Part shown: in pieces, positions 14,261-44,761 of the stretch
How the letters are laid out: each line of letters starts with the position of its first letter
Numbering within the stretch: position 1 is the stretch's first letter
Virus record (IMG/VR): IMGVR_UViG_3300024344_000004
Location: 237-64,236 of that record
Reading direction: 5' to 3' (one strand)
Length of the DNA stretch: 64,000 bases
Source of the DNA: a virus
Notes under the pieces: generated by a model
What the model was told of the DNA's origin: nothing
The model's database searches: none
What the model saw: the letters and a program-made list of their open reading frames with translations, nothing else
Translations under genes and position numbers: made by a program

Positions 14261-17200
14261 TTATGGTGACCATGAAGGCCAAGCACGTAAAGCACCGCCT
14301 ACTGTAGCAGTTAAATATCCATTAGGTACACCTACGGTTGCCATGTCATACATTTCTACAGGTGCTCCAGATGGGAAATATGTTATAGGACCTCCACCAA
14401 CGTCTGTTAGTGCTGAACCACCTGCACCTGCGTGTGAAATAGTAGTACCTCCACCACCACCGCCACCGGTTGCTCCTGTAGTTCCTTGATTACCTTGATT
14501 TCCAGTAGTTCCTGTACTTCCCTGAGTTCCTGTATTACCTGTAGTTCCTTGATTACCAGTACCTGTAGTTCCTTGTCTGCCTTGAACACCCTGACGTCCT
14601 TGTGTACCTTGACGACCTTGTGTGCCTTGTTCTCCAGTAGTTCCTTGGTTACCGGTATTACCTGTATTACCTGTATTACCAGTATCTCCCTTTTCTCCTT
14701 GAATACCTTGACGTCCTTGTACACCCTGACGACCTTGTTCACCTTGACGACCTTGTGTGCCTTGTTCTCCGTCAGTACCTTGTTCACCGGTAGTTCCTTG
14801 AGTACCACCACCACCACCGCCACCAGAATTACCTTGTCTTCCTTGTATTCCTTGTTCCCCATCAGTACCTTGATTTCCAGTACCAGTAGTTCCTTGATTA
14901 CCGATTGTACCTTGGTTACCTGTATTACCTGTAGTTCCTGTATTTCCTGTATCTCCCTTTTCTCCTTGCCTACCTTGTACACCCTGACGACCTTGTTCGC
15001 CTTGACGACCTTGTGTACCTTGTTCTCCAATAGTTCCTTGTCTACCCTGAGAACCTTGAGTACCACCACCACCGCCACCACCAGCAGTACCTTGTGTACC
15101 TTGGTTACCAGCTTGTACAAATGTTATAACACAATCATCACCATTACTAAAATAACTACTATTAGCTACATATTGAACTTGAACTTCTTCATAAGCAGTG
15201 GAACCACCACCACCTGCTACATTTGCACCCGTAATATTAAATGTAACCCATGTAGTAGAATCATCTGTTTTAAATATTCTTAAATGACCTCTCACTGCAC
15301 CTGTTCCATCATCTAATGAATCGTTCCAAGCACTAACATCTACAGAGTTAATATCTAAATCTGAAATACCTACTTTACTTATTAAACCATAATTAGGAAC
15401 ACCACCACCACCGGGTACCGCAAGGTTAAATCCAAAGTTAGTTGCACCGGGTGAACCAGCACTAATATCAAAACTACTATAATTAAATTCTATACTATTA
15501 CCACCAAACAATCCATCAGTACCTTGTGAACCTGTGTTACCTTGTCTACCTTGAACACCCTGACGTCCTTGTGTACCTTGTCGACCTTGTGTGCCTTGTT
15601 CTCCAGTAGTTCCTTGGTTTCCAGTACCACCATCAGAACCATCAGTACCTTGATTACCTGTAGTACCAACATTTCCTTGTCTACCTTGAACACCTTGACG
15701 ACCTTGTTCTCCTTGTCTTCCTTGTGCACCTTGTTCACCATCAGTACCTTGGTTTCCAGTACCACCATCAGAACCATCAGTACCTTGATTACCTGTAGTA
15801 CCAACATTTCCTTGTCTACCTTGAATACCCTGACGTCCTTGTGTACCTTGTTCACCATCAGTACCTTGTTCTCCATCAGTACCTTGATTACCTGTATTAC
15901 CTGTGTTACCAGTATCTCCTTTTTCTCCTTGAATACCTTGACGTCCTTGTTCACCTTGACGTCCTTGTATACCTTGTTCACCATCAGTACCTTGTTCTCC
16001 ATCCGTACCTTGATTACCAATTGTACCAGTAGTTCCTTGATTACCAGTTGTACCAGTAGTTCCTTGAGTACCAGTTGTACCTTGGTTACCTACACCTCCA
16101 GTATCACCAGTATCTCCCTTTTCTCCTTGAATACCTTGACGTCCTTGTTCACCTTGACGTCCTTGTTCTCCTTGTATACCTTGTTCTCCGTCAGTACCTT
16201 GTTCACCGGTAGTTCCTTGACTACCACCACCACCACCGCCACCAGCATTACCTTGTCTTCCTTGTATTCCTTGTTCCCCATCAGTACCTTGATTTCCAGT
16301 ACCAGTAGTTCCTTGATTACCGATTGTCCCATCAGTACCTTGTTCACCTATAGTTCCTTGATTACCAATTGTACCAACATCTCCTTGACGTCCCTGTACA
16401 CCTTGACGACCTTGTTCTCCTTGTCTTCCTTGTTCACCATCAGTACCTTGTTCTCCATCAGTACCTTGATTACCAATTGTACCAACATCTCCTTGACGTC
16501 CCTGTATACCCTGACGTCCTTGTTCACCTTGTCTTCCTTGTATACCTTGTTCTCCGTCAGTACCTTGTTCACCATCAGTACCTTGTTCTCCATCCGTACC
16601 TTGATTACCAATTGTACCAGTAGTTCCTTGATTACCAGTTGTACCAGTAGTTCCTTGATTACCAGCTTGTACAAATGTTATAACGCAATCATCACCATTA
16701 CTAAAGGTACCATTATTATCAACAAACTGTACTTGTACTTCTTCGTATGCTGTGACTCCTGTACCTCCAGCTACATTTGAACCTGTAATATTAAATGTAA
16801 TAAATACTGTAGAATCATCTGTTTTAAATATTCTTAAATGTCCGCGGGGAGAGCCTGAACCATCATCTAATGAATCATTCCAATCTGAAACATCCGTACC
16901 ATTAATATCAAAATCAGATATACCAACTTTAGTTGTTGAACTGTAACTTGGTATTCCTCCTCCTCCGGGTACTGGTATATTAAAACCAAAATTAGTTTGA
17001 CCCGGAGAACCAGCACTAATGTCAAAACTACTATAATTAAATTCTATACTGTTTCCACCAAATAATCCTGTAGTTCCCTGTATACCCTGACGTCCTTGTT
17101 CACCTTGTCTTCCTTGTATACCCTGACGTCCTTGTTCACCTTGTCTTCCTTGTATACCTTGTTCTCCGTCAGTACCTTGTTCACCTATAGTTCCTTGATT

Positions 17201-17575
17201 ACCAATTGTACCAACATCTCCTTGACGTCCCTGTACACCTTGACGACCTTGTTCTCCTTGTCTTCCTTGTTCACCATCAGTACCTTGTTCTCCATCAGTA
17301 CCTTGATTACCAATTGTACCAACATCTCCTTGACGTCCCTGTATACCCTGACGTCCTTGTTCACCTTGTCTTCCTTGTATACCTTGTTCTCCGTCAGTAC
17401 CTTGTTCACCTGTAGTTCCTTGATTACCAGTAGAACCTTGTGCACCGGTTCCTCCAGTACCTTGTCTACCTTGTGTACCTTGTGTTCCCTGAGTAATAGA
17501 TTCTATTTCTTGAATCCTCTTTTTTCCCACTGCATTGTGGGGTAAACTGTTTAGTACTCTACGGTAAGACGGCAT
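14261..17575 (-). CDS. Collagen-like (Gly-X-Y) fibre protein with two copies of a globular domain
   Basis: Long GTQ/GEQ/GRQ/GNQ/GTD triplet runs, poly-Gly hinges, duplicated GLFGGNSIEFNYSSFDISAGSPG...CVITFVQAG domain. Confidence 0.9.
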   Translation of the reverse strand: MPSYRRVLNSLPHNAVGKKRIQEIESITQGTQGTQGRQGTGGTGAQGSTGNQGTTGEQGTDGEQGIQGRQGEQGRQGIQGRQGDVGTIGNQGTDGEQGTDGEQGRQGEQGRQGVQGRQGDVGTIGNQGTIGEQGTDGEQGIQGRQGEQGRQGIQGRQGEQGRQGIQGTTGLFGGNSIEFNYSSFDISAGSPGQTNFGFNIPVPGGGGIPSYSSTTKVGISDFDINGTDVSDWNDSLDDGSGSPRGHLRIFKTDDSTVFITFNITGSNVAGGTGVTAYEEVQVQFVDNNGTFSNGDDCVITFVQAGNQGTTGTTGNQGTTGTIGNQGTDGEQGTDGEQGTDGEQGIQGRQGEQGRQGIQGRQGDVGTIGNQGTDGEQGTDGEQGRQGEQGRQGVQGRQGDVGTIGNQGTIGEQGTDGTIGNQGTTGTGNQGTDGEQGIQGRQGNAGGGGGGGSQGTTGEQGTDGEQGIQGEQGRQGEQGRQGIQGEKGDTGDTGGVGNQGTTGTQGTTGTTGNQGTTGTIGNQGTDGEQGTDGEQGIQGRQGEQGRQGIQGEKGDTGNTGNTGNQGTDGEQGTDGEQGTQGRQGIQGRQGNVGTTGNQGTDGSDGGTGNQGTDGEQGAQGRQGEQGRQGVQGRQGNVGTTGNQGTDGSDGGTGNQGTTGEQGTQGRQGTQGRQGVQGRQGNTGSQGTDGLFGGNSIEFNYSSFDISAGSPGATNFGFNLAVPGGGGVPNYGLISKVGISDLDINSVDVSAWNDSLDDGTGAVRGHLRIFKTDDSTTWVTFNITGANVAGGGGSTAYEEVQVQYVANSSYFSNGDDCVITFVQAGNQGTQGTAGGGGGGGTQGSQGRQGTIGEQGTQGRQGEQGRQGVQGRQGEKGDTGNTGTTGNTGNQGTIGNQGTTGTGNQGTDGEQGIQGRQGNSGGGGGGGTQGTTGEQGTDGEQGTQGRQGEQGRQGVQGRQGIQGEKGDTGNTGNTGNTGNQGTTGEQGTQGRQGTQGRQGVQGRQGTTGTGNQGTTGNTGTQGSTGTTGNQGNQGTTGATGGGGGGGTTISHAGAGGSALTDVGGGPITYFPSGAPVEMYDMATVGVPNGYLTATVGGALRAWPSWSP

Positions 17576-36299: not shown

Positions 36300-36790
36300 C
36301 CTCAGCTCAACAAACCCCTCCTCCTCAGTTCGCTCTACAGAGCTCGTGAGAAATCGTTATCGGGCAGTGAGAAACTGCGCTCTCAGTTCAGGTTCAAACC
36401 AGAACCAATGGTCAGTAGGGCCAGATGAGAAAATAGTCTCAGTTAAGCACAAGCTCTACTAAGATTTTCGGTAGGCTACAATGAGAAAATGCTTAATGGA
36501 GCTTAGTTCGACACGTAATGTGTTCGTGCTCGAACTGTAGTAGTAATAGTTATCAGCCTATATTATCTCAGTTAAGCTTTATTATAATGCTCTACTACGC
36601 AAAGCTCTACTGAGTAATTAAGCTTTACTTAGTTAAGCTTTACTAAGCTCTTTACTTACAGCAATAATATGCATAACTAAGCTATATCTTAATATAGTTA
36701 ATATAGGGAACACGAACTATATAAAGTTTTGCATGAAAAAGCACCCCGTTTTTTATCTCAGTATAAAATCCGTGCGGGGCTCTCAGTCCA
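36300..36790. repeat. Non-coding region dense in CTCAG, TGAGAAA and AAGCT(C/T)TAC short repeats
   Basis: tctcagtt x3, (g/a)tgagaaa x4, aagctctac/aagctttac several times; AT-rich right part. Confidence 0.7.
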
Positions 36791-36832: not shown

Positions 36833-37508
36833 ATGACTATGACCGACATCGACACATTAGCAATACAACTAAAAAGCATGACTGCCAAACAGTTACAACA
36901 ACTGTTAAGTGCAACCCCGAACCGAGACGGTTCCGCAATCAAAGCCCGTAAGATACGTGCAACTGAGACATACTTCAGGAATGTAAAGAACAATGGATTA
37001 TATCCACATAACTTTGAGTCCTTCCCTCAGTTCAGAGAGGTCTTACCTTGAGTGACGTAATCGTTAAGTTCAATAACTACATGACTCAGCACACAGACAA
37101 AGTCCCTTTGTTAAGTGTTCAGTCAACTGATGATAAACGTTTCACAGTGCTGAGGGAATTATTAAATTCCGTCTTCGATGATGTAGAAGACAATGCTTGG
37201 TCAGTATCAGTGAACTTAGGAAAGTTCGTAGATGCCCTCAGCACAATGGAACAAAAAGATATAGATACTATATCACGAACAGTGAAGAAGTATCAAGTCA
37301 AAGGCACTTCGAGTGGTATCTCAGGTGAGAGAACCTATGGATATGACCGAAGCCGTGTTGACCGTAAGATGATTAGAAGAAGGAGAGCCAACTGATGAAC
37401 TGCGTAGATTGTGGTGAATACAGTTGGACTGATAATGGTGGACATGAAATAAATAAATCATGTTGTGAACACTGTTTAGTAAATGATTATATAACAGGTG
37501 AACTATGA
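36833..37508 (+). CDS. Three small early ORFs (36833-37051, 37048-37395, 37395-37508 Zn-finger)
   Basis: Promoter aaacgcttatatagg near 36800; overlapping junctions; last ORF MNCVDCGE...CCEHC. Confidence 0.6.
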
Positions 37509-38683
37509 GTAGAAGAGAAGGAAGACCATCACCAACTGAGTCAGCTACTGAGTTCCCTCTACACTATGAACGTGTAGGCGGAGACGGTAGATATTGGCAC
37601 GTAAGTGAAGACAAGCGTGGAGTAAGAAGATGGAAGAAGGGATTATATCATGGTTCAGATGAGGATAAACTTCTCAGTTCAACAACCGAAACGCTTATAA
37701 AGGATGATATATCTGGAGATACAATGGAAGACAAAACCGACCACAGAGGACTCGACAGTCTATTCGACCGAGACAGTCCCATGCCAGCAGAGGAACCTAC
37801 CCCCGAAGAAGTGGTAGAAGTAGAGAAAGACACAGTGATGTCTAAACTAAGAGGGTCAGTCAATGTGCCCGAAGAGTTTAAATTCGCTGATGACATGACA
37901 TTCTATACTATGTTGAGAAACATATTTAGAGGTAAGAACATTCTTATCACAGGTCCCTCAGGATGTGGTAAGTCAAGTCTCGGTAAGATATTAGCTGATA
38001 TCACTGCAAAAGACTTTTATAGTTTTAACTTCGGTGACACTATGAATCCCTCAGCTAAGTTATTGGGTGACACTAAGTATGATAAAGAAGCCGGAACATG
38101 GTTCAAACCATCTCGGTTCGTCAATGCAATACAAGGTGATTCATTCATTATGTTAGATGAGGTAACACGTGACCGAACAGGTGACTTAGCTAACATTCTC
38201 ATGCCGGTATTAGATGGTCAAAAGTATTTAGCTCTCGATGAGAGTGAAGATAGTGATACTGTCTCAGTTAGTAAAGGTGCGTTCTTTTACGCTACTGCTA
38301 ACATAGGTAGAGAGTATCTCGGTGCATCTCATGATTTAGACCGAGCATGGAAAGATAGATTCACAGGTGGTATATATGAATTAGAATACTTACCACCACA
38401 GAAAGAGAAAGAACTGATACAGAACAGAAACCCTCAGCTTACAGACTACGATGCTGATAAGATTGTAGACTTTGCTAAGAGAGTGCGTGACTTACATTCT
38501 TCAGACGAACTCAATACTGCTGTTTCAACACGTATGTGTTTAGCATCAGCTGAGTTAGTTGTTGATGGGATGCCTTTAGTCGATGCACTGAAACACACCT
38601 GTTTACCGTTCTACCCTGTTCAGGGTGGTGACGATACTGAGAGAGTTCGTATTATACAAGTTATTCAATCAATGGGTGAATAG
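37505..38683 (+). CDS. MoxR/CbbQ-NirQ-NorQ-type AAA+ ATPase with an N-terminal extra domain
   Basis: GPSGCGKS, IMLDEVTR, FYATANIGREY, LDRAWKDRF, STRMCL; internal TATA 37695-37701 and ATG 37724. Confidence 0.88.
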   Translation: MSRREGRPSPTESATEFPLHYERVGGDGRYWHVSEDKRGVRRWKKGLYHGSDEDKLLSSTTETLIKDDISGDTMEDKTDHRGLDSLFDRDSPMPAEEPTPEEVVEVEKDTVMSKLRGSVNVPEEFKFADDMTFYTMLRNIFRGKNILITGPSGCGKSSLGKILADITAKDFYSFNFGDTMNPSAKLLGDTKYDKEAGTWFKPSRFVNAIQGDSFIMLDEVTRDRTGDLANILMPVLDGQKYLALDESEDSDTVSVSKGAFFYATANIGREYLGASHDLDRAWKDRFTGGIYELEYLPPQKEKELIQNRNPQLTDYDADKIVDFAKRVRDLHSSDELNTAVSTRMCLASAELVVDGMPLVDALKHTCLPFYPVQGGDDTERVRIIQVIQSMGE

Positions 38684-39070
38684 ATGGTTAAGAAGAAAGT
38701 ATTACGTAGAAAGCACACATATTGGCATCAGTTGGCTAAGTTCCTTATACTGAATGGTTACAAACCAACAATGATAGGAAAGATAATCAAGGATGTATTT
38801 CCCGAGACTGAGGTCAATGGTAGACACGTAGGTGCATACAAACGTAGATTGATACAAGATGAGGATATTCTCATCCCAAACAAACCAACTATGAATATCA
38901 ATGAAGTAAGAGAAATAGCTGAAGGCTTAGTTACTAACGAAGATATGTTTATATATAAATGTGTTATCGGTTCAGCTAAGAGAAGTCTTAAGTGCTTCGA
39001 GTATAAGTTCCGTAGTGAGGATAAAGATTTAGTAAGTGAGGTAGATAAATGGATTATGGCGATTCAATAG
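38684..39070 (+). CDS. Hypothetical, possible HTH protein
   Basis: 128 aa between AAA and vWA genes. Confidence 0.5.
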   Translation: MVKKKVLRRKHTYWHQLAKFLILNGYKPTMIGKIIKDVFPETEVNGRHVGAYKRRLIQDEDILIPNKPTMNINEVREIAEGLVTNEDMFIYKCVIGSAKRSLKCFEYKFRSEDKDLVSEVDKWIMAIQ

Positions 39071-41163
39071 ATGAATGGACTGAGGACAGTGAAAATGATT
39101 TCTGTTATGCGTGTGACGATTGGACTGATGCCGACGGTCATGGCAACTGTAAAGATTGTGGCAACAGTTACACTACAGTAGACCCATTCGTCAGTCCGAC
39201 TATAGCAAAGACATACAGTTCACCCGCACCTACTGTCTCAGCACATGGTGACCTTTGGAATAGGGGTTCGGGTTTCACATGGGGTGGTAGTTCATATTGG
39301 TCCGGTGGTGGAGCTACATCATGGGGTGGTTGGTCTCAGTCTACAAACGACAGTGCTCGTATGCTTAAACATAAAAGACATTTAGATTCTCTTTGTAAAG
39401 TAGTAGACCCAACTGTAAAGCATTCATTACATTTCGCAACTGAGTCGAAGAACTATTCGAACATGTCTAATGGAACTATATATGTAGATGGGACTCTCAT
39501 TGAACACGATGATGACAAACTCGACATATTAGCTGGTCTCTCAATACATGAGAAGTTACACTTAGTTCATACTCAACCATTAACTAAATGGGAACGTGAG
39601 TATAGTCACCAAAACAATCTTAGTTCAGCACAGGAAAGATTACTACATAACATATGTAATATCATAGAAGATGAATATATAGAATCTCAGTTAGCTAAGA
39701 CTCATGCCGGATACACTATGTATATTGAGAAGGTTAAACAACACTTCTTTGGTAAGCATGGTCACAAGATAGATGAGTTCAACGGTAATCCTATCGCTGA
39801 CATAATGAATACATTGTTAGCTATGGTAAGATATCCACAATCTATCTCAGCTGACCGTAGAAAGAAACACGCTAAGCATATTCAGTTCTTTGCCCGTGCG
39901 TTAACAGATGCATTAACTGATAGACATTCAACCTTTATGGCTATGGATAGTATTTATTGTTATATGAATCAACTCGCTAAAGAAGAAGCAGAGAAGCATG
40001 AAGGCACCGACGAAGAAGAAATACTACGACGTGCTGATGACAGGCTCAAAGACCTTTTAGGTGAGTGGGGTGAATCAGTTGGTGAAGAAATGTCAGCTGA
40101 AGACATGGAACGTATCAAAGATAGACTTATAGAAAAAGAACGTGACGAAGCTGAACGTGGTGATAGATATGACCGTAAAGAGAAATTGTCTCGAGCTTTG
40201 GATAAGTTCGCAAAAGAACTCGCTGATTATGGTTTAGATAGAGACACTATTTCAGATGCACTCGGTAGAGATATAGATGAGTTAGCTGACAGTGACTATA
40301 CTGAAGAGAAGTGGGATGTGTCCCGTGCTCTCGGTTTGAAACAAGGTGGTAAAGTTACATGGCGTAATCAAAGAGCCTCTTCAGACTATGATAAGAGTAA
40401 ATACACTGAGGCTGAAAGAAATATGAAATCAGCAATTGGTCAACTAAAGAGAAAGATACAACTATATGGTGACACACGTATTAACACCATTCGTAACCAA
40501 CGAAGAGGTAAGTTAGATAAACGTATGCTACATAAGATACCTCTCGGTCGACCCGACTTATTCAAGAATGTAATTATTGACGAAGACAAGCCACTCGATG
40601 TATGTCTCTTAGTCGATGAGTCAGGTAGTATGGGTTCATGGAAGATGGCTAAAGCACGTGAGACTGCGATTGCTTTACGTGAATCACTCAAAGATAATCA
40701 AGCTCTCAACTTATGGGTGTTTGGTCACACAGCTGACGGTTATGAATGGGATGGTAAAGGTGACACTAATATGTCAGTATATTGGTCACCTACATATAAA
40801 TCAGATATAAAGGCTATGGGTGCTATGACAGCACGTAGTGAAAACAGAGATGGTATGGCTATTCTCGCATCAGCTGAAAGAGTCAAAGCTGAGTCACCAT
40901 CAATGGGTAGCAATAAACTTATGATTGTTATCTCAGACGGTGAACCATCAGCAGACAAATACAGATTCCCAATCAGTGTGCCACATACTAAGAAGTGTGT
41001 CAGACACATTGAGGGACAGGGATGGAATGTAATTCAAATAGGCATCTCAGGTGCACGTGAATATATTATGAAAGATATGTTTACTAATTACATCCTGTGT
41101 GATGATACAGCTGACTTACCAACTAAGGTAAGTAAAGTAATTAGAAGGGTGATAAAAGTATGA
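39049..41163 (+). CDS. vWA-domain protein with HExxH motif and N-terminal CxxC pair (CobT-like partner of the AAA)
   Basis: HEKLH; MIDAS LLVDESGSM; LMIVISDGEP; CYAC...CKDC. Confidence 0.85.
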   Translation: MDYGDSIDEWTEDSENDFCYACDDWTDADGHGNCKDCGNSYTTVDPFVSPTIAKTYSSPAPTVSAHGDLWNRGSGFTWGGSSYWSGGGATSWGGWSQSTNDSARMLKHKRHLDSLCKVVDPTVKHSLHFATESKNYSNMSNGTIYVDGTLIEHDDDKLDILAGLSIHEKLHLVHTQPLTKWEREYSHQNNLSSAQERLLHNICNIIEDEYIESQLAKTHAGYTMYIEKVKQHFFGKHGHKIDEFNGNPIADIMNTLLAMVRYPQSISADRRKKHAKHIQFFARALTDALTDRHSTFMAMDSIYCYMNQLAKEEAEKHEGTDEEEILRRADDRLKDLLGEWGESVGEEMSAEDMERIKDRLIEKERDEAERGDRYDRKEKLSRALDKFAKELADYGLDRDTISDALGRDIDELADSDYTEEKWDVSRALGLKQGGKVTWRNQRASSDYDKSKYTEAERNMKSAIGQLKRKIQLYGDTRINTIRNQRRGKLDKRMLHKIPLGRPDLFKNVIIDEDKPLDVCLLVDESGSMGSWKMAKARETAIALRESLKDNQALNLWVFGHTADGYEWDGKGDTNMSVYWSPTYKSDIKAMGAMTARSENRDGMAILASAERVKAESPSMGSNKLMIVISDGEPSADKYRFPISVPHTKKCVRHIEGQGWNVIQIGISGAREYIMKDMFTNYILCDDTADLPTKVSKVIRRVIKV

Positions 41164-41675: not shown

Positions 41676-41736
41676 ACCACAACCTTTATATAGGATAATC
41701 AAATATATTGAAATATAATCAAAAGGAATTGAAAAT

Positions 41737-42174
41737 ATGCAAACATTTTTACCAACAAAAAACTTTAGAACATCAGCCAAACTATTAGACTATCGTCGTC
41801 TCGGTAAGCAAAGAGTGGAAGGGCTTCAGCTCATCAACTCACTTAGTCCGGACTACGATAAAAAAGGTTGGCTCAACCACCCCGCACGTTTGATGTGGGT
41901 TGGTTACGAAAACGCTTTGAAACATTACACTAACGTAATGATAGAAGAGTGGGTTGCACGTGGATATAACAACACGATGCAATTATATAAAATAGAAGGG
42001 CCGATAGTATACCCTCAATGGTTAGGCTATCCGGAACTGCATAAGTCACATCGAATGAACCTACTTCGTAAGGATTACGACTTTTATAAACAGCACTTCG
42101 ATGACGATGCACAAACGGACCTCACAATCATAAACGAGTATGAATACTATTGGCCACCGGAGAAAGAAAGATGA
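41737..42174 (+). CDS. Pyrimidine-dimer DNA glycosylase (DenV/MSMEG_6728-like)
   Basis: MQTFLP...LDYRRLGKQRVEGLQL...HPARLMWVGYE...SHRMNLLRKD. Confidence 0.88.
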   Translation: MQTFLPTKNFRTSAKLLDYRRLGKQRVEGLQLINSLSPDYDKKGWLNHPARLMWVGYENALKHYTNVMIEEWVARGYNNTMQLYKIEGPIVYPQWLGYPELHKSHRMNLLRKDYDFYKQHFDDDAQTDLTIINEYEYYWPPEKER

Positions 42175-42940: not shown

Positions 42941-43056
42941 GCTCCACTTAGCAAAGCTTTATATATCTCTAAAGGGGAGATATAATAGAGCATGGTTTAT
43001 AGAGCATGATTAATTAAGCAATTAAGTAGCTCTATACTTACCTCAATATTTGCTCA

Positions 43057-43572
43057 GTGAGGCCCATTATGGGAAGAAAGGATACAGGAAAGAATTTCGA
43101 AAACGAAATAAGAAGAAGCTTGAAAAGCAGTCGCCACATATGGTGGTTTAGAATACAAGATACCAATGACATTAACAGATTCGTCAAAGTCGCAGTCGCT
43201 GAGAAGCAACCCGCCGATTTCTTTACAGTCTACAGAAGTAGACCAATTATGCTTGAGGCTAAAACTTCTCGGAATCTTACTTCTTTTCCTTTACATTATG
43301 GTAATACCCCTGCTATCGCTAAGCATCAGATAAGAGAGGGAGCTAAGTTGGAGAGAGCTGGTGGACTAAGTTTTATCTTGATAAGAAGAGAAGAATACAG
43401 AAACAAAAAGACATATGCAATTACACCATCACAGGCTAAGTATTTATACAGTAAGTCTTTCAAAAGAAAGTCAGTTAAATGGAGCTGGTTTGATGAACAC
43501 GCATACATTGTCGAAAGATTAAAAGCACCCTTGAGGTGGAATTTACAAAAACTATATGAAGAAGCAATATGA
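43057..43572 (+). CDS. Holliday-junction resolvase (RecU/Hjc-like PD-(D/E)XK)
   Basis: GKNFENEI, PADF, LEAKTS, HQ motif. Confidence 0.8.
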   Translation: MRPIMGRKDTGKNFENEIRRSLKSSRHIWWFRIQDTNDINRFVKVAVAEKQPADFFTVYRSRPIMLEAKTSRNLTSFPLHYGNTPAIAKHQIREGAKLERAGGLSFILIRREEYRNKKTYAITPSQAKYLYSKSFKRKSVKWSWFDEHAYIVERLKAPLRWNLQKLYEEAI

Positions 43573-43702
43573 AGAAAAGAGCAACTAAAATACCCTACGA
43601 AGGATATACTCTACCCCCATCAGCTGAGAAGGGTGGTATGTTTGTAGACTTCAATAAGATTATACAGAGAAAACCTGTTAAAAAAGTAAGGATAAAAAAG
43701 AA

Positions 43703-44302
43703 ATGAAAGACATAATGAAAGAATACAGCACAACATTCTACGAATGTTTAGATGCGTGGCCAGATGATATCAAAGAAGATATATACAAACTATATGCATA
43801 CCTCAGAGTGTGTGATGAGATGGTCGAAGGTGAGAAGACACTACATGACTTCAAGAATTGGAGAGATGTTATAGAACAGTTCTATGAAGTTAGTGATAAG
43901 TATCAGTTCGATGGTCAATGGTTAGCTGACTTCCACGTCAGTATGTATCAAGATATGGTAAAGAAAGAACACACAATTGTATCTATGTTAGATTACTGTA
44001 AAGGTTCAGCTGAATCAGTTGGTATGATGATGTCTAAGATATTAGGATGTAACCCACGTTGTGAGATACACGCAAGGGCTCTCGGCAGAGCTTATCAGAT
44101 TATTAACTTCATAAGAGATTATGATGAGGATGTAGCCAATGGTTATCATTACATCACTGATAACTTCAGTGCATACTTAGAGATATTTTATCAAGACATA
44201 GATAATGGTATGGATGGTTTAAATTATATTCCAGAAGAGTTACAAGAGCCTATCATAATGGCTACTAAAAAATATATGGAAGTAGCGGGTGAATTCAACT
44301 AA
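43703..44302 (+). CDS. Compact phytoene/squalene synthase-family protein (CrtB-like)
   Basis: YSTTFY, LYAYLRVCDEMVE, SMYQDM, YCKGSAESVGMMM, ALGRAYQIINFIRDYDED. Confidence 0.8.
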   Translation: MKDIMKEYSTTFYECLDAWPDDIKEDIYKLYAYLRVCDEMVEGEKTLHDFKNWRDVIEQFYEVSDKYQFDGQWLADFHVSMYQDMVKKEHTIVSMLDYCKGSAESVGMMMSKILGCNPRCEIHARALGRAYQIINFIRDYDEDVANGYHYITDNFSAYLEIFYQDIDNGMDGLNYIPEELQEPIIMATKKYMEVAGEFN

Positions 44303-44644
44303 ACCGCCATATTACAAAGCTCTGTGGCACAACTGCAACATCTGTAGGATACATTATATGAGTGAAGAACCTCATTTGAGAGCTTATCTTTGTAATGAGT
44401 GTTGGAATAAGACACCTCAGTTTGTTGTGAAAACACCTAAAAAAGAAATAAAAAAGAAAAACGATATAAATATGAAGACAATAATATTATATACTATAGG
44501 TAATCTATTATGTTTAGGGGTAATCGCATATTATTTGTGGTTTAATTAATTATGAGTGAATGTAATAGATGTTTTAAGAGAGCGTTCTTCGTCGGTATAG
44601 ATGGAAGAAAAAGGTGTGTTCACTGCTCACCATATAAAGAATAG
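44289..44644 (+). CDS. Zn-finger + TM protein (44289-44549) and 30-aa Zn-finger (44552-44644)
   Basis: CNIC...CNEC plus C-terminal TM; MSECNRC...CVHC. Confidence 0.6.
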
Positions 44645-44761
44645 ATGGATATAATACCGTTAGAAATACCAATACGAGACCAACTGAGAGTGTATGCTAT
44701 ACAAGTCTCAGTTTACATTACCATAACCTTTATATAGGGAGGTGGTTTTGGATAAATTACA

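Follow-up and report, generated by a model that had tools for sequence, protein, structure and literature searches.

A compact virus-encoded protein of the squalene/phytoene synthase family in marine tailed viruses with archaeal hallmarks

The virus record IMGVR_UViG_3300024344_000004 encodes a 199-aa protein of the squalene/phytoene synthase family (SQS_PSY). This protein belongs to a compact viral family, the members of which share an invariant set of catalytic residues and are encoded by an optional gene of their viral lineage. We tentatively interpret it as an active, Mg-dependent head-to-head prenyl-diphosphate synthase that would be virus-specific and minimized and may serve as auxiliary metabolic gene product. 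The IMG/VR record is 69,348 bp long (100% complete according to CheckV), and most of it is covered by the window, the stretch of 64,000 nucleotides analyzed here, to which all virus coordinates refer.

Results

Family assignment and predicted fold

The original prediction, which was made from the nucleotide sequence alone, had placed a virus-encoded compact phytoene/squalene synthase at 43703-44302 and we recovered an ORF of 199 aa on the plus strand at exactly this position (ATG start, stop codon included). When we compared the protein with the Pfam profile SQS_PSY (PF00494), a match covering profile positions 2-172 of 263 was obtained (E 3.3e-23, 83.2 bits, cut-off 26), which is far beyond chance, and this match was confirmed in a profile search of the whole virus record. 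The motifs on which the prediction was based are all present and in order: S9-TTFY, L30-YAYLRVCDEMVE42, SMYQDM, Y98-CKGSAESVGMM, and L127-GRAYQIINFIRDYDED143. Similarly, the protein was correctly described as shorter than cellular CrtB, since the viral forms comprise 194-206 aa and the cellular relatives 259-323 aa (median 280, n=110).

Curated NCBIfam models scored much lower. The CrtB models NF042419, NF045921, and NF045686 gave 34.4, 34.1, and 30.8 bits (cut-offs 480, 500, and 550) and for HpnC, HpnD, and squalene synthase we obtained 48.2, 48.9, and 15.8 bits (cut-offs 250.45, 278.6, and 286.75). Thus, the protein stays below every one of these equivalog cut-offs, including those of its best-scoring models HpnD and HpnC. 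The order of the scores (HpnD > HpnC > CrtB) was considered as a clue to function and was rejected, because carotenoid-type archaeal relatives rank the models in the same way and the order does not discriminate. In PHROGs, no family was found for the protein.

Structure prediction with AlphaFold2 (56-row alignment) yielded a confident model of ten helices (pLDDT 93.6, pTM 0.90). The predicted fold is that of an all-helical class I prenyl synthase and corresponds to the helical core of CrtM/CrtB. When this model was compared with solved structures by Foldseek, Staphylococcus aureus CrtM (PDB 2ZCO, 3AE0, and others) matched with TMq values of 0.83-0.86, the whole group of CrtM and CrtM-like structures with 0.75-0.86, and HpnC (4HD1) with 0.83. 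Weaker matches were YisP (3we9, TMq 0.71), human squalene synthase, and the carbazole prenyltransferases CqsB4 (TMq 0.66) and LvqB4 (7vwt, 7vws). A phmmer search of solved structures returned CrtM and CrtM-like proteins at E 2e-8. CrtM and the CrtM-like protein 8IS6 are the best solved matches in both structure and sequence. HpnC, HpnD, and YisP have the same fold as the viral protein and show that this fold can stop at an intermediate or merely hydrolyze its substrate. The structural search of BFVD gave no match at E <= 1e-3, and the ESM Atlas contains a 50-member cluster of 201-aa proteins (TM 0.95) that is labeled 100% viral.

Conservation of the compact form

A search of 5.8 billion proteins returned 243 relatives of the 199-aa protein. 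The best 120 of these share 59-86% identity with it, are nearly all 194-206 aa long, are encoded on contigs of up to 74 kb and originate from ENA, JGI, NCBI, Tara, and Logan. Altogether, about 170 distinct compact relatives (194-206 aa) are located on marine viral contigs of 57-74 kb, and IMG/VR contributes 29 contigs with the compact form (41-93% identity). In an exhaustive HMMER search, the viral family (E 1e-64 to 1e-44) was separated by a sharp drop from the full-length cellular proteins (E 1e-23 and weaker). The length of 194-206 aa is common to two deep subclades of the viral family, between which identity is only 41-44%. Sequencing runs of 13 studies contained near-identical DNA, and the name 'phytoene synthase' is already given to these proteins by annotation pipelines.

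Comparison with relatives of 83-93% identity gave dN/dS ratios of 0.035-0.08 and these data indicate strong purifying selection on the gene. In agreement with this result, comparison with an environmental contig of 93% identity showed 23 of the 28 listed differences to be at third codon positions.

Active-site residues and compaction

For comparison at the residue level, we aligned 168 distinct members of the viral family with S. aureus CrtM and 110 cellular relatives. Here, we found that 11 positions (the equivalents of CrtM Y41, R45, D48, Y129, Q165, N168, R171, D172, D176, Y183, and Y248) are 100% invariant among the 168 viral sequences. The Tyr, Arg, Gln, and Asn residues of this list and the second Asp-rich motif are common to CrtM and the viral protein, and the first Asp-rich motif differs at its last position (see below). 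The two catalytic tyrosines (CrtM Y129 and Y248) correspond to Y98 and Y191, and the second Asp-rich motif with its preceding Q..N..RD corresponds to Q132, N135, R138, D139, and D143, all of them conserved in 168/168. For CrtM, a 2026 modeling paper assigns a role in catalysis or Mg binding to Y129, Q165, and N168 and names R45, R171, and R265 as anchors of the diphosphates (PMC13304436). In the first Asp-rich motif, D38 is invariant. The last position of this motif is Glu in 153 and Asp in 15 of the 168 viral sequences (DExxE) versus Asp in 107/110 cellular relatives, and this Glu could still bind Mg.

On the other hand, the viral protein is only 21-25% identical to CrtM and 88 residues shorter. 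It lacks CrtM residues 186-209 and 257-287 (including R265), and carries Tyr in place of R181 and Glu in place of D52. It can be seen from the alignment that these differences are properties of the family. The R181 position is Tyr in 138 and Phe in 30 of the 168 viral sequences versus Arg in 105/110 cellular relatives, and the 24 residues that follow the second Asp motif (CrtM 186-209) are deleted. In CrtM numbering, the viral chain stops at position 256, and the last ~31 residues with R265 and the terminal helix are absent in 168/168. In PSY, the C-terminal helix was described as an amphipathic surface helix (PMC13304436). The last 48 residues of the 199-aa protein were aligned to those CrtM helices on which Y248 is located. 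In addition, the family has gained residues of its own: K100, next to Y98, is invariant and replaces a Tyr conserved in 84% of the cellular relatives, and H90, Y131, and Y140 are further family-specific invariant residues near catalytic residues. At the chain-length position F26 of CrtM, the 199-aa protein carries Leu and most of the viral family Val or Met.

As judged from this alignment, the viral family has kept the ionization machinery and has lost part of the diphosphate-binding and lid apparatus. The assignment as virus-encoded compact phytoene/squalene synthase stands insofar as Pfam match, fold and selection identify a genuine member of the family. However, and beyond what the original prediction took into account, a lid-like segment and two conserved arginines that bind diphosphate were removed or replaced in the course of compaction and, therefore, unchanged CrtB chemistry is uncertain.

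Cellular relatives and origin of the gene

The nearest cellular sequences are 27-37% identical to the viral protein and all of them comprise 264-323 aa. They originate from Thermoplasmatota (including an MGIII Poseidoniia genome), Sulfolobales, Bathyarchaeia, other archaea, and Patescibacteria, and some of them (archaeal, carotenoid-type) adjoin CrtI-like desaturase genes. Phytoene synthases of the archaeal/CPR type share with the viral protein the motifs STT(F/Y), LYA(F/Y)xRxxD, YGSAE(V/S)VG(L/M)MM, and LGRA(M/Y)QxxNFIRD. However, they keep DDxxD, the Arg of GRxY(L/F)P, the following helix-turn segment, and a C-terminal KVKP... tail, which set them apart from the viral form. As part of our preferred explanation, we consider it possible that the viral gene descends from this archaeal/CPR-type CrtB branch.

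In phylogenetic trees, the viral sequences were monophyletic (SH-aLRT 100), and their stem had a length of 1.6-2.5 substitutions per site. Trees were built with and without CrtM; both left the viral clade on a long stem and did not resolve its attachment. Thus, phylogeny sets the viral clade apart from the cellular genes and indicates an old capture, for which no donor stands out.

Within the class Poseidoniia, full-length SQS_PSY genes were detected in 70 of the 71 sampled genomes, with 1-4 genes per genome that frequently form tandem pairs. The carotenoid-type copy to which the viral clade is closest was found only in nine genomes, and these nine are also included in the sample of the order to which the MGIII locus belongs. 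In the MGIII Poseidoniia contig (L093:1546-4855), the closest cellular phytoene synthase gene shares a block with the genes of a CrtI-like desaturase and of a CarH-like protein that contains two B12-binding domains, and this block suggests light-regulated carotenoid synthesis in MGIII archaea. Larger Poseidoniia genomes (~1.3-2.2 Mb) outside the order sample of this locus carry tandem long SQS_PSY paralogues of ~350 and ~430 aa, as at L162:1390-3861. One such paralogue reached 246 bits on the HpnD model, just under the cut-off, and these archaea may therefore use a squalene route of the HpnC/HpnD type.

Genome organization and host

The genes for terminase, portal, major capsid, collagen-repeat, and tape-measure proteins are located on the left arm of the genome (minus strand). 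The right arm (plus strand) encodes a CobS-like AAA ATPase, a CobT-like VWA protein, a family B DNA polymerase, a class II ribonucleotide reductase, a glycosyltransferase, a RecU resolvase, and a pyrimidine-dimer glycosylase. The aIF-1A-like protein of the virus is 45-56% identical to sequences of the phylum sampled around a Poseidoniia genome versus at most 46% in the phylum sampled around a Sulfolobales genome. This gene and the BRE/TATA-like motif described below are archaeal hallmarks of this tailed virus. When the GenBank phage collection was searched, the capsid protein gave no match and terminase and PolB returned only sequences of 21-24% identity, none of which is a named relative of the virus. 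Taken together, the host is probably an archaeon of the Thermoplasmatota/Poseidoniia; MGII, to which the original prediction pointed, is a narrower candidate.

The collagen-repeat gene (14261-17575, minus strand) encodes a 1104-aa protein of the structural module with seven stretches of collagen triple-helix repeats (Pfam Collagen E 1e-88) and coincides with a local rise in G+C to ~0.43. The CobS-like AAA ATPase and the CobT-like VWA protein are encoded as a pair at 37505-41163, and the class II (B12-dependent) ribonucleotide reductase is located elsewhere in the genome; the pairing of CobS/CobT with this reductase in archaeal tailed viruses has been discussed (PMC8651126).

Locus of the PSY-like gene and its transcription

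The PSY-like gene is part of a tightly packed unit, the first gene of which encodes a RecU-type Holliday-junction resolvase (43069-43572, plus strand; Pfam RecU E 2.6e-11, PHROG 843 E 6.6e-26). Relatives of this resolvase align from query residue 4-5 onward, and its start is likely the ATG at 43069 rather than the GTG at 43057 given in the ORF list. A 45-aa basic ORF follows (43569-43706, plus strand), which is connected by ATGA overlaps with the RecU-like stop and the PSY-like start; in relatives, one or two small ORFs (36-55 aa) are found at this position. Downstream, the gene of an 86-aa zinc-ribbon membrane protein (44289-44549, plus strand) overlaps the PSY-like stop by 14 nt. This protein consists of a CxxC...CxxC motif, a Lys-rich linker, and a C-terminal membrane helix, and its residues C16, C19, C35, and C38 are invariant in 17 relatives. 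A second small zinc-ribbon ORF, coding for a CxxC...CxxC peptide of ~30 aa, lies behind it (44553-44645). The order VWA protein, ligase, RecU, small ORFs, PSY-like gene, zinc-ribbon gene, ..., HSP20 recurs on contigs of 58-74 kb.

Upstream of this block, we found an archaeal BRE/TATA-like promoter motif (CTTTATATA; 42957-42965, plus strand). Twelve copies of it are present in the window versus 1.8 expected, and none of 100 shuffles reached this number. Except for the copy at 36718-36726, all of them are located on the strand of the local genes. The next copy lies at 44728-44736, and between 42965 and 44728 there is neither a TATA-like motif nor a plus-strand terminator-like site. Since promoter-like motifs flank the block and the stretch between them is free of such signals, the RecU-like gene, the 45-aa ORF, the PSY-like gene, and the zinc-ribbon gene are probably transcribed together as one unit of the replication module. 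ATAGAGC repeats (ATAGAGCATGGTTTATAGAGCATGA ... GCTCTAT) are clustered at 42970-43050, downstream of the TATA-like motif and ahead of the RecU-like start, and could form a regulatory or origin-like element.

As to transcription itself, a 919-nt contig of a 93%-identical relative in a metatranscriptomic cDNA library spans 43566-44398, and a 151-nt contig in another RNA library covers 43811-43960 with a single mismatch. These are assembled contigs, from which strand, ends, and level cannot be read and in which uncovered parts mean nothing. For this reason, and since DNA carry-over is possible, they are a weak hint that the PSY-like gene is transcribed.

The original prediction had noted a nearby UV-repair glycosylase as consistent with a sunlit niche. 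A pyrimidine-dimer DNA glycosylase (Pfam Pyr_excise PF03013, E 6.6e-22) is indeed encoded 1.5 kb upstream (41737-42174, plus strand). However, this link is loose, since the glycosylase gene has its own TATA-like motif at 41684 and forms a separate promoter-like unit, and in relatives it is located downstream of the PSY-like gene. The zinc-ribbon protein was considered as an obligate membrane anchor of the PSY-like protein. This idea was dropped because the zinc-ribbon gene, a frequent neighbor, is also present in relatives without a PSY-like gene and in two loci precedes the PSY-like gene. A complex prediction of the PSY-like family with the zinc-ribbon protein gave a score of 0.02, which counts neither for nor against binding.

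Accessory distribution and pathway context

Members of the viral lineage were identified via the adjacent RecU-like protein and presence of the PSY-like gene was scored within 3.5 kb. It was present in 17 of 30 loci, and one relative carries it ~6 kb away from the RecU-like gene. In contrast, whole-record searches of six relatives that are 92-100% complete (64.7-81.2 kb) detected no SQS_PSY gene at all. Being absent from these near-complete genomes and present in others, the gene is optional in its lineage, as expected for an auxiliary metabolic gene. The proposed auxiliary role also agrees with the full-length homologues in Poseidoniia, the probable hosts, and with the low dN/dS: the gene has cellular counterparts, is dispensable for the virus core, and is kept under selection.

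In the virus genome, we searched for and did not find a polyprenyl synthase, a CrtI-type oxidase, or a UbiA gene. Thus, the substrate and all further steps must come from the host. A rhodopsin search gave no match in the virus, but the control was silent in every genome as well and, therefore, this search is uninformative. Since the likely hosts already carry 1-4 full-length paralogues, the benefit of an additional copy is not obvious.

Discussion

Possible catalytic function

Our preferred explanation, which we advance tentatively, is an active head-to-head synthase. A lineage of 57-81-kb marine tailed archaeal viruses (probably infecting Thermoplasmatota/Poseidoniia) would keep the gene as an optional auxiliary metabolic gene. 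In the replication module, an archaeal-type promoter probably drives cotranscription of this gene and the RecU resolvase gene. The soluble ten-helix core would bind a host-made prenyl diphosphate (GGPP or FPP) via Mg2+ held by D38/E42 and N135/D139/D143 as well as via R35 and R138. The substrate would then be ionized and, with the help of Y98 and Y191, two molecules would most likely be coupled head to head. A phytoene- or dehydrosqualene-type hydrocarbon, or a cyclopropyl diphosphate intermediate, may be the product. In this scenario, the virus would supply only the committing step of the pathway, and the host isoprenoid pool, which is shared with the archaeal membrane lipids, might be pulled toward carotenoid/retinal or apolar polyprenes during infection. 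Retinal supply with its connection to proteorhodopsin, photoprotection, and diversion of lipid precursors, all part of the original prediction, may each follow downstream from this scheme, and the present data do not distinguish among them. Several findings count against an active head-to-head synthase: loss of the R181 equivalent, the 24-residue deletion, the missing C-terminus, the DExxE motif, the equivalog scores below cut-off, and the host paralogues. Moreover, we know of no active head-to-head synthase as short as 199 aa.

The same losses can be read as a change in chemistry, which we regard as a serious though less probable alternative. Here, fold and substrates would be the same and FPP/GGPP would still be ionized in a remodeled, more open active site, but the two diphosphates would no longer be joined. 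The outcome might be a prenol released by YisP-like hydrolysis, the cyclopropyl diphosphate as HpnD-like end point, or a prenyl group transferred to another acceptor, for which the SQS-fold carbazole prenyltransferases are a model. For the host, any of these outcomes would mean that the GGPP/FPP pool is drained or re-routed and that no pigment is made. Such a change would be in line with the two missing diphosphate-facing arginines (R181 to Tyr/Phe, R265 deleted), with the deletion of 24 residues beside the active-site mouth, and with the clustering of the invariant replacements K100, H90, Y131, and Y140 near catalytic residues. The SQS_PSY fold is known to host altered reactions, and YisP and CqsB4/LvqB4 are among the structural matches of the viral model. 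However, the TMq values of YisP and CqsB4 are lower than the 0.86 of CrtM, and no candidate acceptor emerged. YisP is not known to possess a second Asp motif, whereas the viral protein has retained this motif and, as DExxE, the first one together with Y98 and Y191, and these tyrosines would be needless for hydrolysis alone. Peptide prenylation is one of the transfer options and is kept only within this alternative. As a role in its own right it was rejected, because the known peptide prenyltransferases are trans-IDS-like enzymes (ComQ type) with a repurposed second motif (PMC13290415), unlike the 199-aa protein.

It is conceivable, although we consider it unlikely, that the viral clade is functionally a class of its own among proteins with the squalene/phytoene synthase fold, in which the host's GGPP/FPP is ionized and the prenyl cation is quenched or transferred differently. 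According to this reading, the second diphosphate would no longer be held, as both arginines and the lid are lost, and the invariant Lys, His, and Tyr residues near the catalytic Tyr would have been gained. If true, this would be a one-gene drain on the membrane-lipid precursor of the host or the source of a virus-specific isoprenoid.

Even less probable is a non-catalytic protein, which would bind prenyl diphosphate or a host synthase as partner without turnover and act as decoy or inhibitor that shuts down carotenoid/squalene or lipid synthesis of the host. Viruses often carry minimized mimics, and both the loss of lid elements with two diphosphate-binding arginines and the several full-length enzymes of the likely hosts would suit such a role. 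However, a pure binder does not need invariant Mg-binding and acid/base residues across sequences of only 41% identity, and no candidate partner emerged. Finally, the incomplete Pfam coverage and the fact that databases do hold short SQS_PSY fragments might suggest a functionless truncated remnant of a captured host crtB or an assembly/annotation artefact, but this reading is effectively refuted by the conservation of stop position and length in ~170 distinct sequences from many studies, by the low dN/dS, by the compact and confident model, by the C-terminal match to the CrtM helices with Y248, and by the downstream DNA, which encodes an unrelated conserved protein.

Significance and related viral genes

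If the viral protein is active, no smaller natural enzyme would exist in the squalene/phytoene synthase family, and it would define the minimal catalytic core of a fold that is targeted by drugs and by engineering (CrtM, human SQS, plant PSY). Borrowed metabolic genes as such are common in marine viruses. According to the searchable literature, however, the gene described here would be the first isoprenoid or carotenoid auxiliary gene reported for archaeal or tailed viruses. Archaea use GGPP for membrane lipids as well as for carotenoid/retinal. Thus, a viral enzyme at this branch point is relevant to the reprogramming of abundant ocean archaea by infecting viruses, and it may also bear on the light-driven energy supply via rhodopsins.

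Literature searches for phytoene synthase in magroviruses, in archaeal viruses, and among auxiliary metabolic genes retrieved the giant ChoanoVirus (PMC6789865) as the only viral case. Two recent surveys of magroviruses and Poseidoniales viruses contain no phytoene, squalene, crtB, or terpene term, and one paper lists a 'terpenoids' category of auxiliary genes with no detail. The statement that carotenoid genes are known from giant but not from tailed archaeal viruses is thus borne out by the searchable literature, in which no described archaeal virus was found to carry such a gene. ChoanoVirus also encodes a phytoene synthase homologue and originates from a sunlit marine setting (PMC6789865). 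However, its synthase is full length and part of a multi-gene pathway with a rhodopsin, and its host is a eukaryote, whereas the gene described here is single and minimized, with no other pathway gene, in a tailed virus with archaeal hallmarks.

Two GenBank 'UNVERIFIED_ORG' records of Staphylococcus phages (OR844999.1, 75668-76990, our locus L042; and OR849911.1), the only matches of the 199-aa protein in the GenBank phage collection, were considered as viral relatives and rejected. They carry an intact S. aureus crtM, which is most likely host DNA in the assembly and not a phage gene. In IMG/VR, the GVMAG contigs L040 and L041 (two giant-virus bins) encode SQS_PSY homologues with ~35% identity over query residues 56-143, and this observation is consistent with carotenoid genes in giant viruses.
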